From NCBI GenBank assembly GCA_036604865.1, contig GCA_036604865.1_4856.1: a stretch of 47,773 nt of DNA. The stretch is one strand, 5' to 3'. Each line of letters opens with the position of its first letter. The first letter of the stretch is position 1. Under the pieces are notes generated by a model. That model did no database searches. It was not told the DNA's origin and saw only the letters and a list, made by a program, of their open reading frames with translations. Of this stretch, positions 1,218-45,506 are shown one piece after another. The stretch comes from a phage. The position numbers were made by a program, and so were the translations under genes.

Positions 1218-1600
1218 TTACTCCCACGCACAACCGCAAACCACGGCTTGCCGCTTCCGTCAGGGTCTTCAACCAAATCGCCAGTGCATCCGGCTGTATC
1301 CAGTAGTTTCATCTGATTGTACAACGCCACCCACGGCTTACTGCCATACGCGAATGATTGAGATGCGCCAGATGGTGCGCTCTGACTGGTAACGTAGCGA
1401 CCAGCGGTATTAGCGCTAATCAGGATTGAAGCCCACAACATGATCGCATTTTGTCGGCATTCATCGTTTGGATAGTTCAGCTCAAGGCATTCCTTGATTG
1501 ACTCCACAAGACACAGAATGCCAGACGCATCTGTTGTGGTGATAGTCATCCCGCGAGATGCCATCTGACTGACCAGTTCTTCAGGTGTTGGTGCTGTCAT
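1208..1600 (-). CDS. putative head-tail connector (adaptor) protein
   Basis: ORF track 1208-1636; internal Met (MTAPTPEEL...) at 1600 is the more likely start; position in joining block. Confidence 0.4.
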   Translation of the reverse strand: MTAPTPEELVSQMASRGMTITTTDASGILCLVESIKECLELNYPNDECRQNAIMLWASILISANTAGRYVTSQSAPSGASQSFAYGSKPWVALYNQMKLLDTAGCTGDLVEDPDGSGKPWFAVVRGSKCK

Positions 1601-1865
1601 TTCTCTTTGACTCCCGGACTTTCCACCACATTTCAAATAGATTCTTTATTACCAGAGACAGCGCACCTAGGATTGACGCTACTGCCGCCCACTCTGTCAG
1701 GCTGTGTGGAATCATGGCCTCAAAATAAGATTGCGTGACAGGTGTTTGCTCTGCGACTTTCAGACCAATGCCAGTGCCAATAGAAGCATACCCAGCCTTA
1801 TCAATCACCTGTCCTGTCGTCCCGCTTATAACTTGCTCTGCGGCCTGTCTTAGTGTTTCGTTCAT
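1581..1865 (-). CDS. hypothetical protein with C-terminal hydrophobic helix
   Basis: 94-aa ORF; hydrophobic stretch WAAVASILGALSLVIKNLF; weak ribosome-binding site. Confidence 0.35.
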   Translation of the reverse strand: MNETLRQAAEQVISGTTGQVIDKAGYASIGTGIGLKVAEQTPVTQSYFEAMIPHSLTEWAAVASILGALSLVIKNLFEMWWKVRESKRNDSTNT

Positions 1866-1897: not shown

Positions 1898-2338
1898 TTA
1901 TAGATTTGAATCAGCGAAAAAACGATGGCAACCACGCCAAGAATAATGTCCAATTTCGCCACCCCATTTAAAAGTGATGGAAAGGATGAACAGATGGATG
2001 CCGATAATAATAAATGCGTACTGCGCATGAAGCGGCGTTTCTACAGGCGTGATAAATTCCCATACGAATGACTCTATCGCTACCAGCCATTCGTAAAGGC
2101 TCATCGTCAGCACGCAGAGCGCCATCTTTGTACTTTTGCGCAGCGCAATAGCCGGAAACGACCAGACCATAGACTGCGCAAGGTAATACAGATATTCGGC
2201 GGGAAATGAATCAACAAGCACCCATCCAAGATACACAGACATCACCATTGCCGGAATGAACACCAGAAACGCGACCATGCCTGTGCAGGCAAAACCAAGC
2301 ACATACATGATCATGATGGCAACGTCTGCGCCGAACAT
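1898..2338 (-). CDS. multi-pass integral membrane protein, function unknown
   Basis: 146 aa with at least four hydrophobic helices; start codon overlaps stop of upstream small ORF (TAATG). Confidence 0.5.
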   Translation of the reverse strand: MFGADVAIMIMYVLGFACTGMVAFLVFIPAMVMSVYLGWVLVDSFPAEYLYYLAQSMVWSFPAIALRKSTKMALCVLTMSLYEWLVAIESFVWEFITPVETPLHAQYAFIIIGIHLFILSITFKWGGEIGHYSWRGCHRFFADSNL

Positions 2339-2751: not shown

Positions 2752-3561
2752 ATGAAAACACTCAGCAAAATCTATTCAGACAAAGAAACGCGCAACGGCA
2801 TCGCTGTTAACAAAACCTATCTCGTGCCAGTGGAGCAAATATATCTGGAGCCGGGATACAACATCCGTGAAGCAGATGAGCAGCATGTGGAATATTTCGC
2901 GCAGTGCTGGGAATCAGGTCAGCCATTGCCAGCATTAACAGTTATTCCAGATGAGAAGGGAATCCGCATTCTTGATGGGCAGCATCGCTATCTCGGCGCA
3001 CTGCGTGCCATTGAGCGTGGCGCGCCAATCGCTCGCATTGAGTGTAAGGATTTCACTGGAGATGAGGCGGATAAAATTGCCTTCATGGTGTCATCCAGTC
3101 AGGGCAAGCAGCTTGACCCGTTTGAACGTGCAAAGGCTTACACGAGACTGAAAGGCTTTGGCTGGACGAATGAAGAAATCGCCAAGAAGGTGGGTCGTTC
3201 AGTATCTGACGTGCAGATGCATCTGTCACTGGGTGATGTGCCTGCGGAAGTAAAAGCGCGAATCAGTGCCGGGCAAATCAGCTATGCAAATGCCGTAGCA
3301 GTAACGCGTGAACATGGCGATGATGCGGTAAAAGTTATCGACGAGGCAGTCGAAGAGGCCAAAGCACAAGGCAAGGATAAGGTCACTGCAAAAGTGCTCA
3401 AGTCGAAAAAGATTAAGCCAGTAGACCGCCTGATTGAGTTATTGAAGCCAGCCGACCATGTAATTCTCCCCGCTGGTCATGTAGTGGCTGAGGACGAGGA
3501 ATTTATTCAGATTCCTGTTGCTGATATTCACGAGGTTATGGCAATTCTGGAGAAGATGTGA
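2752..3561 (+). CDS. ParB-like nuclease domain protein
   Basis: 269 aa; ILDGQHRYLGALRA matches the ParB N-terminal domain core (DGxHR); SD aagga upstream. Confidence 0.6.
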   Translation: MKTLSKIYSDKETRNGIAVNKTYLVPVEQIYLEPGYNIREADEQHVEYFAQCWESGQPLPALTVIPDEKGIRILDGQHRYLGALRAIERGAPIARIECKDFTGDEADKIAFMVSSSQGKQLDPFERAKAYTRLKGFGWTNEEIAKKVGRSVSDVQMHLSLGDVPAEVKARISAGQISYANAVAVTREHGDDAVKVIDEAVEEAKAQGKDKVTAKVLKSKKIKPVDRLIELLKPADHVILPAGHVVAEDEEFIQIPVADIHEVMAILEKM

Positions 3562-3752
3562 TGAGCAAGTATGAAGAGTTGGACTTGAAGATATTGCAAA
3601 TGCTTTCTGTTAAACCAACCCCTGTTTTTGATATATGGCTTAAGTTTCGTGATGATGTTAGAAACATTACGGTTATTGATCGGAGGATGCAGGTGCTGAA
3701 AAAGAAAGGTTTTGTGTACAACGTTCGTGGATGTGGTTGGGTTAAGCTATGA
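3558..3752 (+). CDS. hypothetical small protein
   Basis: 64-aa ORF with ATGA overlaps to both neighbouring genes. Confidence 0.45.
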   Translation: MMSKYEELDLKILQMLSVKPTPVFDIWLKFRDDVRNITVIDRRMQVLKKKGFVYNVRGCGWVKL

Positions 3753-3922
3753 CACCAGAACAATTCATCGAAAAACAACTTCGTGCCAAGCTGCCTGAAA
3801 TCGACCAGATGGCAATTGATGCGGCAATTCAGTATTACAAGCGCAATCAGAGCGCAAAGAAGGGTGGCATTTTTGAAGAATGCCTGAAGGTTGCAAAGCA
3901 ACACATGATTAAGGTGAAGTGA
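3749..3922 (+). CDS. hypothetical small protein (57 aa)
   Basis: Not in ORF track; fills the gap between 3752 and 3922 with start/stop overlaps on both sides; MTPEQFIEKQLRAK... Confidence 0.35.
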   Translation: MTPEQFIEKQLRAKLPEIDQMAIDAAIQYYKRNQSAKKGGIFEECLKVAKQHMIKVK

Positions 3923-4458
3923 TGAAACTAAAAATCAGCAAACTATTACTTGAATCAGCGTTAATATTTCAGGCGCGCAACGATATTCGTTACTATCTGA
4001 ACGGTATCTGCTTTATGCCTGATGGTCGCATTGCATCAACTGACGGTCATCGCGCATTTATTGGTTGCAGCCATGACAATACGCTGACAAAAAATGTGAT
4101 TATCAAGATTGGCAAATCTCCAACAAAACGCTATGACTACGCCATCATTGACACCAAGTCGAAAATTGCAACGTATCATGATGAAGCTGGCGTGATGGTT
4201 GGCGATGGTATCAGCGAAGAGATTGATGGCCGATTCCCTGACATTGACCGCGTGATACCAAAAGAAACGAAAGCAGCAGAGGAAATAGGATTCAATGCTA
4301 GCTACCTTGTTGATATTGAGAAAGTGGCGAAGCTGTTTAATCCTAAATTCTGTGGTGTCAAATTTGAACTGAATGGGAATACAAATGCCGCAGTTTGCTG
4401 TCTTAGCTCGCCATCTGGAGAGACTGCGAAGATTGTTGTTATGCCTATGCGTCTGTAG
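3922..4458 (+). CDS. hypothetical protein
   Basis: ORF track 3919-4458; ATG at 3922 overlaps the previous stop (TGATG); no domain recognised. Confidence 0.5.
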   Translation: MKLKISKLLLESALIFQARNDIRYYLNGICFMPDGRIASTDGHRAFIGCSHDNTLTKNVIIKIGKSPTKRYDYAIIDTKSKIATYHDEAGVMVGDGISEEIDGRFPDIDRVIPKETKAAEEIGFNASYLVDIEKVAKLFNPKFCGVKFELNGNTNAAVCCLSSPSGETAKIVVMPMRL

Positions 4459-13130: not shown

Positions 13131-13155
13131 CAAGCCCCTTATGGGGCTTTTTTAT
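13131..13155. terminator. rho-independent terminator (agcccc-ttat-ggggct then ttttttatt)
   Basis: Hairpin 13133-13148 and T-run; terminates the plus cassette; overlaps the 3-prime end of the spanin gene. Confidence 0.55.
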
Positions 13156-13630
13156 TGCGTAATGAGTCGTACTGAAGCTGACAACTCAATCCAGCGTTGT
13201 AATACCTGTCAGCTTCTTCCGCTGTTCGTCGATAAGCATCGTTGCTTTCTTCAAGCATCCCTCCAAGCATAATGATGACCTCGCGGGTTGTCTTGCCAGA
13301 TGACTCAGTTCCGGTATATTGGCTTGCGAGCTGGCGGATTCTATCGAGTTCCCCGCGCATCCGCTTAGCACTGGACTCAGCATTAACAGCATCATTACGC
13401 GCAGCATCAATCCTTTGTTGTGCGTCGGCCTGAATCTTTTGCAGTTCTGCATTGCGTCTTTGTTCCTCTTGTTCGTCTGCTGCCTTCCGTTCTGCGATGG
13501 CTTTTGCATATCCAGCGGCATATTGTTGCTCACCATAGCTGGATACCTTATTTGCTACCCACAATGCGCCAGCAGCAACAATTATAATAATTGCCAGTGG
13601 TCGCCAGTATTTAGCGAGAATCGACATCAT
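13139..13630 (-). CDS. i-spanin (Rz-like)
   Basis: N-terminal membrane anchor WRPLAIIIIVAAGALWVA then long coiled-coil; directly downstream of endolysin; contains an embedded lipoprotein ORF. Confidence 0.6.
   Translation of the reverse strand: MMSILAKYWRPLAIIIIVAAGALWVANKVSSYGEQQYAAGYAKAIAERKAADEQEEQRRNAELQKIQADAQQRIDAARNDAVNAESSAKRMRGELDRIRQLASQYTGTESSGKTTREVIIMLGGMLEESNDAYRRTAEEADRYYNAGLSCQLQYDSLRNKKAP
13186..13407 (-). CDS. o-spanin (Rz1-like lipoprotein) embedded in the i-spanin gene
   Basis: Alternate frame inside 13139-13630; signal peptide with lipobox LSGC (MLRVMMLLMLSPVLSGCAG); ORF track 13186-13536, start trimmed to Met at 13407. Confidence 0.55.
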   Translation of the reverse strand: MLRVMMLLMLSPVLSGCAGNSIESASSQANIPELSHLARQPARSSLCLEGCLKKATMLIDEQRKKLTGITTLD

Positions 13631-13850
13631 TGCGCAGCCTCCTGTTTTCCTTTCTCATGCCGTGCATTTTGCCGAACATTGATAACACGAGTACGGAATA
13701 GCTTATCCCTTTAACCACCGAATCTGGTATCTCGGATTTTAGGTCGTCTGGCATAAACATCCATACATGCGTCATGGAGTCAGGCCACAGCTCAAGGTAT
13801 GAGCAAAATGAAAGCCAGACACCAATGAACCAGTTGCTTAGCTTTTTCAT
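13611..13850 (-). CDS. putative holin-like membrane protein
   Basis: 79 aa; two hydrophobic segments and a basic C-terminal tail (KMHGMRKENRRLRND); sits between endolysin and spanin. Confidence 0.35.
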   Translation of the reverse strand: MKKLSNWFIGVWLSFCSYLELWPDSMTHVWMFMPDDLKSEIPDSVVKGISYSVLVLSMFGKMHGMRKENRRLRNDVDSR

Positions 13851-14311
13851 GCCACAGCTCCGCCAGCCTCTTTGTATACCTGAATCAGCTTATCCAGTTT
13901 CTGCTCATGCTGACCATAACCAGCGCCCGGTAATGAAGCCCAGCGGGAGCGGCATTTATGGATAGCACCAGCAATGCGACCAGCCTCAATATCAGCAGTG
14001 GCCTTGCATTCACGGATTAGCTGCATTGCAATGGCGTCCTGCGATGCGGGGGAGAAGTCAGGCAGGCGCAGTTGCTTTTTGTATGCATCATAAAACTTAG
14101 CCAGCACCTGATAGCGCCCGGCGGCGGTGGATTTGATGCCCAGCTTAGGCAGGCTAATCAGCTTGCGCGGGTGATCAGAATAGTCAGTAAACAGTGAGCC
14201 GCCGACAATCACATCATAACCATGATTATTGGTTTTCTGTCGCCCGTTATCAGTCCCCTCGCTGTACGCCAGCATATCCAGAAACGCCTTCATGTTTTTG
14301 CTAATAGCCAT
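13847..14311 (-). CDS. endolysin, lambda R-like lytic transglycosylase
   Basis: KAFLDMLAYSEGTDNGRQKTNNHGYDVIVGG...DYSDHPRK...WASLPGAGYGQ closely parallels phage lambda R including the catalytic Glu in SEGT; ORF track start trimmed to Met at 14311. Confidence 0.8.
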   Translation of the reverse strand: MAISKNMKAFLDMLAYSEGTDNGRQKTNNHGYDVIVGGSLFTDYSDHPRKLISLPKLGIKSTAAGRYQVLAKFYDAYKKQLRLPDFSPASQDAIAMQLIRECKATADIEAGRIAGAIHKCRSRWASLPGAGYGQHEQKLDKLIQVYKEAGGAVA

Positions 14312-14579
14312 ACCAGTAAACCTCTTTTTCAGCTTTGCGTTTTGCTTTGTTGTCGGTCTTCTCGCCCCACACAATAAAGTGCGCAACGGCACATGAGAAG
14401 CAGCGGAGATTGTGTTTCTTCAGGAGCGTTGACTTGCGGAACGTGTCAATGCCAATGTCAGTGGCAAGGCTTGTCAGCGCATCAAACTGATTCTGTGTTG
14501 TCTCGGTAGTGATGTAAGGCGATATATCAACGGCATCGGTGATTCCAAGCGTCTCCACGCCGCGTTGCGATAGTTTCAT
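14301..14579 (-). CDS. hypothetical protein upstream of endolysin
   Basis: 92-aa ORF with strong SD aggagg five nt before ATG; not obviously membrane-spanning. Confidence 0.45.
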   Translation of the reverse strand: MKLSQRGVETLGITDAVDISPYITTETTQNQFDALTSLATDIGIDTFRKSTLLKKHNLRCFSCAVAHFIVWGEKTDNKAKRKAEKEVYWYGY

Positions 14580-14623
14580 TCTGCCTCCTGTTCAAATAAT
14601 GATTAATTCTATCACAACAGGTA

Positions 14624-14652
14624 TTGACGTAGATTGAGTGGTGGTGCATAGT
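14624..14652 (+). promoter_or_regulatory. sigma70-type promoter TTGACG-17-CATAGT with TAGATTG abutting the -35
   Basis: ttgacg at 14624-14629, catagt at 14647-14652; same architecture as the promoter at 2505. Confidence 0.55.
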
Positions 14653-14680
14653 ATCTACATCAAATAGAGAGGTGGTAAAC

Positions 14681-14872
14681 ATGAGTACGCTTGAATTGGT
14701 TGAACGCTCGATAATTACGCTGTGGGTTCTTTCTTTGGCTTTTGGTTTGTGCGCGTTCTATAAACCATGGGCATGGCAAAGAAAAAGCTACTTCGCCATA
14801 ATTTACGGCCCATTCTGCGTTATGAGCATGATTGCGGCGCTATTCTTCGTTATTGATTTGGTGTGGTCATGA
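14681..14872 (+). CDS. small two-helix membrane protein
   Basis: ORF track 14672-14872; ATG at 14681 after SD agagaggtgg; two hydrophobic helices. Confidence 0.5.
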   Translation: MSTLELVERSIITLWVLSLAFGLCAFYKPWAWQRKSYFAIIYGPFCVMSMIAALFFVIDLVWS

Positions 14873-45311: not shown

Positions 45312-45506
45312 ATGGATGTTGTTATTTTGTTGTTTTTTGTTGGATTAGTGATATTTGCTTATCTTCTCCCATCATTTGTGGCATTGCAAAGAAAGCACAC
45401 AAACACGACAGCAATCTGTGTACTGAATATTCTTGTCGGGTGGAGCTTTATTGGGTGGGTTGCAGCACTTGTCTGGGCATTAGTTAACAGTGGCGACAAA
45501 AAATGA
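45312..45506 (+). CDS. superinfection immunity (Imm-like) membrane protein
   Basis: YLLPSFVALQRKHTNTTAICVLNILVGWSFIGWVAALVWAL matches the superinfection-immunity family signature (LPS..A..R.H.N...I..LN.L.GW..IGW..AL.WAL). Confidence 0.6.
   Translation: MDVVILLFFVGLVIFAYLLPSFVALQRKHTNTTAICVLNILVGWSFIGWVAALVWALVNSGDKK

Follow-up and report, generated by a model that had tools for sequence, protein, structure and literature searches.

The question raised by this locus is why a complete endolysin gene is preceded, at the head of the same cassette, by a second and much shorter gene that sequence records also describe as an endolysin. The window, i.e., the whole stretch of 47,773 nucleotides of phage DNA that was analyzed (contig GCA_036604865.1_4856.1 of assembly GCA_036604865.1), carries five overlapping genes on its minus strand, from 14579 to 13139, with a hairpin at the end and plus-strand genes on either side. 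An earlier note on this sequence had described a lysis cassette here, and all of the open reading frames (ORFs) it listed were found on this strand; what it had missed is that the upstream gene encodes a GH24 lysozyme from which the N-lobe has been deleted, and that the order endolysin, holin, spanin is the norm in this phage group and no oddity of the window. The region is interpreted, with a probability of roughly 0.8, as the lysis module of a virulent siphophage of the Skate/swi2/C1-like type, which follows the canonical lysis route and whose first gene encodes a retained, non-catalytic half of a GH24 enzyme, termed the half-lysozyme in what follows. All functional statements made here rest on homology, synteny and selection. 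Every gene of the cassette matches a lysis family and the block is 84–90% identical at the DNA level to that of more than 130 phage records, which together place the assignment far beyond chance.

The half-lysozyme gene (14301–14579, minus strand) encodes 92 amino acids and follows the Shine-Dalgarno sequence AGGAGG at 14589–14584. Its product matches PF00959, the GH24 family, with an E-value of 6e-10 and over profile positions 55–112 of 125 only, while it matches phrog_10457, a family labelled endolysin, over its full length. The closest full-length relatives are the 145–146-residue endolysins of Salmonella phage CF-SP1 and Klebsiella phage ZC2, with 46–53% identity. Relative to these enzymes the 92-residue protein has kept the A-helix at its start (MKLSQRG.E.L, ~11 residues) as well as what follows from approximately residue 68 to the end, and alignment indicates that ~50 internal residues are missing, along with five to six more near the C-terminus; using hhalign, residues 18–89 were matched to residues 68–144 of the full-length enzyme. 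The missing piece holds the catalytic Glu, Asp and Thr (E15, D24 and T33 of the full-length orthologue) as well as the beta-sheet lobe that forms the wall of the cleft. Homology to the GH24 fold is consequently present in the 92-residue protein and the catalytic triad and N-lobe beta-sheet are absent, its AlphaFold2 (AF2) model being devoid of beta-strands. As judged from these alignments, the protein consists of the GH24 C-terminal subdomain plus the A-helix, the catalytic N-lobe having been deleted in frame. The idea that D15 might be a substituted catalytic Glu was dropped, because the hhalign result and a two-residue offset make it more likely that the Glu was deleted outright, and it is absent either way. 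None of the papers searched describes the 92-residue gene as a deleted, non-catalytic lysozyme, and as far as that literature shows the deletion is new. The earlier note had reported a strong ribosome-binding site and no clear transmembrane helix for this gene, and both statements hold, the best 19-residue Kyte-Doolittle mean being 0.82; this value and the GH24 homology also led to its rejection as a holin candidate. The GenBank labels of the gene in related phages vary between endolysin, lysozyme and putative lysozyme. A CxxC pair, C60 and C63 (14391–14402, minus strand), is found in 68 of the 69 distinct short forms and, as CYTC, in the closest full-length GH24 enzymes, and is not found in the P22 and T4 lysozymes.

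The AF2 model of the 92-residue protein is compact and all-helical, with a predicted local distance difference test (pLDDT) score of 94.8 and a predicted template modelling (pTM) score of 0.87. This confidence may profit from full-length lysozymes in the underlying alignment; nonetheless, an independent BFVD model of the orthologue from phage KFS-SE2 agrees with it, superposing at a template modelling (TM) score of 0.99. Foldseek comparisons with GH24 endolysins returned TM scores of 0.7–0.8 when normalized to the query and 0.35–0.5 when normalized to the target, with approximately half of each target covered; the structures matched in this partial manner include R21, P22 lysozyme, AbLys1 and PHAb11. 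The C-terminal subdomain of T4 lysozyme, comprising residues 75–164 and 1–12, folds autonomously (bioRxiv 10.1101/353649), and the 92-residue protein is confidently predicted to fold in the manner of such a subdomain. The T4 laboratory fragment CTF (75–164 plus 1–12) indeed represents the same cut, i.e., A-helix and C-lobe without the N-terminal subdomain, although the phage protein differs from it in being natural and conserved in a phage lineage, and in bearing DIGID in place of NIGxG, the CxxC pair and a Y[WY]YGY tail. The muramidase domain of SpmX from the Caulobacterales, a GH24 fold kept for a role other than bulk lysis, offers an analogy only: SpmX (6H9D) was among the structural matches of the model and NF051871 was a sub-threshold hit, yet SpmX keeps the whole two-lobe domain whereas the 92-residue protein has lost half of it.

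In CF-SP1, ZC2 and 30 IMG/VR loci, a GH24 enzyme of 144–149 residues is followed directly by the holin and spanin genes. When IMG/VR was searched with a short-form profile, all 36 loci with a short form of 92–93 residues had a lambda-R-like (hereafter R-like) endolysin gene next and then the holin, whereas among the full-length GH24 loci from the same search the holin came next and a second endolysin was present in 0 of 30. Searched from the R side, R-like genes of at least 86% identity had the short form immediately upstream in 34 of 34 loci, and those of 51–68% identity occurred in unrelated contexts in 13 of 13; many of the loci behind these counts are closely related, and the counts do not represent independent events. 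Divergence among the short forms is greatest for P0092 of locus L019 (98 residues), whose 45-kb contig shares the portal/head-morphogenesis synteny; the next gene there encodes an endolysin with GH108 and PG_binding_3 domains, and a DUF7940 gene comes after it. The half-lysozyme has thus persisted next to two catalytic endolysins that are unrelated to each other, GH108 in this locus and GH104 elsewhere. The strictness of the co-occurrence, taken with the retention of the gene, fits a half-lysozyme that is unable to lyse alone and is kept for a function of its own.

These comparisons also indicate the direction of change. The sister cassette, represented by Swiduovirus CF-SP1, Klebsiella phage ZC2 and others, shares with that of the window the upstream regulatory region, the holin, the spanins and a GH24 gene in first position; there, however, the GH24 enzyme is full length (144–149 residues), has E15, D24 and T33 intact and is the only endolysin, while in the window ~50 residues have been deleted and a GH104 gene has been inserted between the GH24 half and the holin. 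From this sequence comparison, the cassette with full-length GH24 is read as the ancestral state and the short form with a second endolysin as the derived one. A further GH24-derived protein, P0107 (101 residues; locus L021, positions 120–425, on a 2.8-kb Joint Genome Institute metagenome contig), has an intact A-helix, the DIGID motif and a somewhat shorter internal deletion; it has no Y[WY]YGY tail, its neighbouring genes have no family matches, and it may represent a half-lysozyme of separate or earlier origin. Other GH24 matches of ~100 residues in a library of 1.84 billion proteins mostly start in helix C or have N-termini that are assembly artefacts, and were set aside as differing in architecture.

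The most serious rival explanation, unlikely though it appears, is that the 92-residue ORF is a decaying pseudogene or translational leader, the remnant of a GH24 gene displaced by the R-like gene, which stays open only because it carries a promoter-proximal ribosome-binding site and the start region of R. The catalytic lobe is gone, the 3' end of the ORF overlaps the start of R, the Shine-Dalgarno sequence of R lies inside it, and the first 17 codons are relaxed, with a ratio of nonsynonymous to synonymous differences per site (pN/pS) of 0.43. A leader ORF, however, must only remain open and need not keep its amino-acid sequence, while codons 18–89 of the short form have a pN/pS of 0.09 across 33 IMG/VR loci, as compared with 0.045 for the same region in 30 full-length enzymes; for the short form, the ratio of substitution rates (dN/dS) is 0.14–0.17 within the common type (type A) and 0.12–0.24 between short-form types, whose synonymous sites are saturated. 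All of these ratios are simple Nei-Gojobori counts on sequences that are related and not independent. The boundaries of the deletion are unchanged in divergent short forms of 93–98 residues (55%, 52% and 39% identity), meaning that both these boundaries and the length of 92–98 residues have persisted through saturated synonymous divergence, and the confidently predicted fold likewise speaks against decay. Across the 69 distinct short forms the GH24 core residues are invariant, as is D45, which gives DIGID where the full-length enzymes have NIGxG, and the CxxC pair described above is conserved alongside these core motifs. The C-terminal Y[WY]YGY, present in 69 of 69, also occurs in L019, where it lies outside the four-nucleotide overlap with the next gene, i.e., it is kept even when it does not coincide with the start of a downstream gene. 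Purifying selection thus acts on the half-lysozyme, which is unlikely to be a decaying remnant.

The second gene of the cassette (13847–14311, minus strand) encodes the endolysin proper, a protein of 154 residues. The close parallel to lambda R that had been suggested for it was borne out: a phmmer search against the PDB aligned residues 3–153 with residues 4–153 of lambda lysozyme (3D3D/1AM7; E-value, 8e-62), and the protein matches phrog_90, an endolysin family, with an E-value of 5e-57, while Pfam and NCBIfam searches returned no matching model. The catalytic Glu of the AYSEGT motif is kept, AYSEGTDNGRQKT being aligned to AWSEGTDNGRQKT of lambda lysozyme; in lambda R, the catalytic Glu of the SEGT motif is Glu19. 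Hydropathy analysis of the protein revealed no hydrophobic segment and no signal or signal-arrest-release sequence, and an endolysin without a hydrophobic N-terminus needs a hole-forming holin. By homology and hydropathy, then, the second gene product is assigned as a soluble, lambda-R-like lytic transglycosylase of family GH104. In the related record of phage Sf11, the GH104 enzyme is tagged GH24/pfam00959. The dN/dS of the R-like gene is 0.03–0.045. Across genomes with a far more diverged half-lysozyme and holin (loci L012–L014 and L022–L057), the R-like protein is 95–99% identical with a synonymous divergence (dS) of only 0.2–0.7, whereas identity in those genomes is as low as 55% for the half-lysozyme, whose dS is saturated, and 60–70% for the holin (dS, 0.9–1.4). 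This pattern suggests that the R allele either spread horizontally not long ago or is under unusually strong constraint.

The third gene (13611–13850, minus strand), whose start overlaps the endolysin stop codon (ATGA), encodes the 79-residue protein that had been singled out in the earlier note as the best holin-like candidate. This choice is in line with annotation and position: the protein matches the ‘holin’ family phrog_13249 over its full length (E-value, 3.5e-42) and PF25612, DUF7940 (E-value, 6e-9), its counterpart in phage Skate is labelled a class II holin, and in the loci compared DUF7940 is the sole small membrane protein that is always found between endolysin and spanin. The position is kept in phages of Salmonella, Klebsiella, Aeromonas, Vibrio, Serratia, Pseudomonas and Xanthomonas, and in the distant phages of the last three genera the DUF7940 protein is likewise annotated as a putative holin. 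In keeping with class II holins, the protein is small, lies beside the endolysin and has a highly charged C-terminal tail. Two weakly hydrophobic segments, residues 4–22 and 41–59, were detected, and the distribution of charge, with basic residues at the N-terminus (MKK) and in the tail (RKENRRLRNDVDSR) and a conserved acidic loop (PDDLK) between them, would fit an N-in/C-in class II topology. Annotation and gene position accordingly designate the 79-residue protein as a probable class II holin, for which ‘unusual holin candidate’ is a fair label. The dN/dS of this putative holin gene is 0.13–0.24, and no experimental work on DUF7940 or phrog_13249 was found in the literature searched.

The final two genes encode the spanins. 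The i-spanin (13139–13630, minus strand; 163 residues) matches PF10721, DUF2514 (E-value, 1e-21), and the Rz-like spanin family phrog_312 (E-value, 5e-46), and has an N-terminal transmembrane helix at residues 12–30 (Kyte-Doolittle mean, 1.98) followed by a helical periplasmic domain. The o-spanin ORF lies wholly inside 13630–13139 in the +1 frame, ends at 13186 and encodes MLLMLSPVLSGC within its product, which matches phrog_11621, also an Rz-like spanin family, with an E-value of 4e-24. Its lipobox, LSGC (13368–13357), with the Cys codon at 13359–13357, is followed by Ala, i.e., there is no Asp at +2, and the h-region reads VMMLLMLSPVL. The embedded Rz/Rz1 pair that the earlier note had proposed stands in respect of the lipobox and the full embedding, an L[AS]GC lipobox being present in the +1 frame of 13 of 13 relatives, but not in respect of its start at 13407. 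All 13 relatives have the Met at 13452, from which the gene is also annotated to start in Skate, and for this reason the o-spanin precursor is placed at 13452–13186 (minus strand); the Met at 13407 is present in 10 of 13, with Thr or Ile in the other three. The start at 13452 is therefore more likely by conservation, and the mature lipoprotein is identical for either. Gene architecture and the predicted lipobox identify the pair as a two-component, embedded spanin of the Rz/Rz1 type. Among the relatives, the C-terminal halves of the i- and o-spanin switch allele together. In the window, 13139–13400 (minus strand) carries, in both frames, an allele unlike that of most relatives, the i-spanin being 77–80% identical to those of ZK22 and Seszw_1 and 57–69% to others; this joint switch of both frames hints at what is expected for interacting C-termini and mosaic exchange. 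In the records of related phages the i-spanin is named ‘tail protein’ or ‘putative endopeptidase’, and among the GenBank records of these relatives the o-spanin is annotated in Skate only.

On the interpretation favored here, a single transcript would run from an extended -10 element located 5' of 14579 to the hairpin at 13132–13149, and the five genes would be translationally coupled. The soluble transglycosylase would build up in the cytoplasm while the two-helix DUF7940 protein gathers in the inner membrane, where at a set time it would form holes through which the enzyme reaches and degrades the murein, after which the i-spanin and the lipoprotein o-spanin would disrupt the outer membrane. 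The GH24 catalytic lobe would have been removed by one ancient in-frame deletion, with catalysis passing to a newly acquired enzyme, GH104 here and GH108 in one deep branch. The half-lysozyme itself would be soluble and remain in the cytoplasm until the holin fires, and the best guess for its role is a non-catalytic accessory one in lysis, either by binding murein after holin triggering or by modulating holin timing from the cytoplasm. Whether it represents a pseudo-enzyme with its own lysis job, i.e., a new soluble cassette component derived from the non-catalytic lobe of an endolysin, is a considerably more tentative suggestion; such a job would explain why the first gene was retained while the adjoining endolysin was swapped at least twice (from GH24 to GH104, and to GH108).

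A number of observations weigh against this interpretation or parts thereof. Genomes with short forms that are 45% different share R proteins of 95–97% identity, and short-form, R and holin alleles are shuffled among genomes, which gives no sign of a specific partner for the half-lysozyme. The 79-residue protein is weakly hydrophobic, with Kyte-Doolittle maxima of 0.96 and 1.27 over 19 residues, below the usual threshold of 1.6, and of 1.31 and 1.71 over 15 residues, its second hydrophobic core is a stretch of 13 residues between two invariant lysines, and its AF2 model of two long helices has a pLDDT of 67. The spacing E-x8-D-x5-T, canonical for GH24, occurs at residues 9, 18 and 24 of the half-lysozyme of the window and in 51 of the 69 distinct short forms, which on sequence alone would allow for residual activity. 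The literature searched (DUF7940, DUF2514 with holin, and Skatevirus) yielded no experiment on any protein of these cassette families. Finally, in the seszw genome-reduction study (NAR 2022, PMC9825161), genes judged essential by homology were not targeted; in all 70 records of at least 99% identity the short form, R and holin genes are present, with genes 75–78 in every mutant, while the smallest mutant lost the neighbouring genes 69–72 and 79. Since the cassette genes were probably never targeted, this retention is uninformative and is given no weight.

The weak hydrophobicity of the DUF7940 protein leads to a second, rather improbable rival, namely that another small membrane protein is the hole-former and the 79-residue protein an antiholin or accessory. 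The obvious candidate is a two-helix ORF of 63 residues at 14681–14872 (plus strand), which adjoins the cassette behind a divergent promoter and reaches Kyte-Doolittle values of 1.68 and 2.34. It was found, however, in only 4 of 17 related loci searched (Skate, ZK22, Sf11 and C1), its place being taken by other small genes in Seszw_1, Akira, sal3, Bas78 and KE12, and it has no PHROG, Pfam or NCBIfam match, on which grounds it was set aside, whereas DUF7940 holds its place between endolysin and spanin even in Pseudomonas and Xanthomonas phages. None of the membrane ORFs of the window other than that for the 79-residue protein matches a holin family. Three were considered and rejected: a 64-residue superinfection-immunity-like protein (45312–45506, plus strand; phrog_1039), a 94-residue membrane protein (1581–1865, minus strand; phrog_13738), and a 146-residue three-helix protein (1898–2338, minus strand; phrog_14688, labelled lipoprotein). 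The 63-residue ORF, which is preceded by a good ribosome-binding site and is divergent from the cassette, is 78–87% identical in Skate, ZK22, Sf11 and C1.

The weakest alternative, that the 92-residue protein is a second, miniature but active endolysin with E9, D18 and T24 as its triad, draws on the motif spacing given above, on the ‘endolysin/glycosidase’ and endolysin labels of GenBank and PHROGs (phrog_10457), and on the GenBank note for Skate, which cites such a motif as ‘Ex5Dx8T’ and probably refers to this same string; it is very hard to sustain, given that E9 aligns to a non-catalytic Glu of the A-helix that is also found in full-length enzymes, that D18 and T24 correspond to G68 and T74, and that the region of the true E15/D24/T33 and the beta-sheet wall of the cleft have been deleted. 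The reading in the Skate note was tested and rejected, the three residues being neither homologous to the triad nor conserved: of the 69 distinct forms, 16 have D, K, H or M at position 9, 9 differ at T24, and 18 lack the full spacing, among them all of the equally conserved deep branches. Furthermore, the NIG motif of the substrate cleft is altered to DIG, SIG or AIG, and a complete endolysin goes with each of the short forms but with none of the full-length GH24 enzymes.

Returning to the half-lysozyme as a retained, non-catalytic first gene of an otherwise canonical cassette, the lambda S-R-Rz/Rz1 system is comparable in that the two share a close R homologue (E-value, 8e-62), an embedded two-component spanin and holin-dependent lysis by a soluble endolysin. 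In the window, by contrast, the holin follows the endolysin, bears no relation to S, which is a class I holin of three helices, and has no dual-start motif; the spanins belong to other families (DUF2514 and phrog_11621), and an extra gene precedes the endolysin. The locus is in effect a non-orthologous endolysin replacement in which the old enzyme was halved, a new one was inserted beside it, and the leftover half was kept by selection. Should the protein turn out to help time lysis or target murein, it would extend the holin-endolysin-spanin scheme by one component, and it would also be a naturally occurring lysozyme subdomain that folds autonomously. The matter has a practical side as well: PHROGs and upwards of 130 phage records list the gene as ‘endolysin’ or ‘lysozyme’, and several of the phages that carry it are under development for Salmonella biocontrol; since by homology its product has no catalytic lobe, it should be neither counted nor cloned as a lytic enzyme. 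Tractable members of the group include Skate, seszw, and Bas77 and Bas78 of the BASEL collection (Escherichia coli K-12).

Successive genes of the cassette overlap by 11, 4 and 20 nucleotides. The ribosome-binding site and ~100 base pairs upstream of the first gene are almost invariant, also where the GH24 gene is full length, and a TTGTGATAGAAT block is invariant or near-invariant in 14 aligned upstream regions, phages with full-length GH24 included. A sigma-70 consensus scan found no minus-strand promoter 5' of the cassette; the putative extended -10 element, TGATAGAAT (14606–14614, minus strand), ~27 nucleotides 5' of the first ATG, went unreported by the scanner because it has no good -35. 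On the strength of its conservation, TGATAGAAT at 14614–14606 is put forward as the putative cassette promoter. The intergenic region as a whole (14580–14680, 100 base pairs) is conserved above the level of the flanking genes across 14 phages, those with full-length GH24 again included, and contains back-to-back promoter-like elements, i.e., TGATAGAAT directed towards the cassette and TTGACG-17-CATAGT (14624–14652) directed towards the plus-strand genes.

At the opposite end, a terminator scan identified the GC-rich hairpin AAGCCCC-TTAT-GGGGCTT (13132–13149; seven-base-pair stem, four-nucleotide loop; strand unassigned), which spans the stop codon of the i-spanin gene, in agreement with the overlap of the spanin 3' end with a terminator hairpin that the earlier note had reported. 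The stem is followed by TTTTATT on the plus strand, while the tail on the minus strand reads GTTTCAA. This T-run on the plus strand gives the hairpin the look of a convergent or bidirectional terminator, with the converging plus-strand genes probably stopped there too, and the Skate annotation places a terminator at the corresponding hairpin. The element is thus likely to be a bidirectional or convergent terminator.

The cassette itself was already known, having been annotated in phage Skate in 2019 as endolysin/glycosidase, endolysin/transglycosylase, class II holin, I-spanin, embedded O-spanin and terminator (MH321493; Microbiol Resour Announc 2019, PMC6606912). Skate as well as Seszw_1, Sf11, Akira, 64795_sal3, C1 and Bas78 have the same five genes as the window, with the same order and overlaps, at ~84–90% DNA identity. 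The records matched by the cassette block include those of Salmonella phages Skate, ZK22 and Seszw_1, Shigella phage Sf11, and Escherichia phages C1, swi2 and Bas78, and the cassette is also found in Cedarrivervirus, Akiravirus, Saltrevirus and Deseoctovirus. Within its first 25 kb, the window is 89–91% identical to swi2, C1 and Sf11 over ~70% of that length. The window is an uncatalogued member of this 45–48-kb Skate/swi2/C1-like siphophage group; it does not correspond to any catalogued genome and is a mosaic, its holin allele being that of KE12, CHRF_10034 and ST46 and its spanin C-terminal halves being of the ZK22/Seszw_1 allele.

The relatives also carry insertions that are missing from the window, at positions 3497–3997 of locus L002, 2404–2904 of L016, 1950–2099 of L008, 3950–4120 of L013 and 2175–2516 of L005. 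An HNH homing endonuclease gene lies just 3' of the spanin genes in ZK22 and Seszw_1, a DUF1353 gene follows the spanin in Sf11, and an ORF of 49–56 residues is located between the holin and i-spanin genes in NX263 and L013. The borders of the cassette appear to be insertion hot spots.

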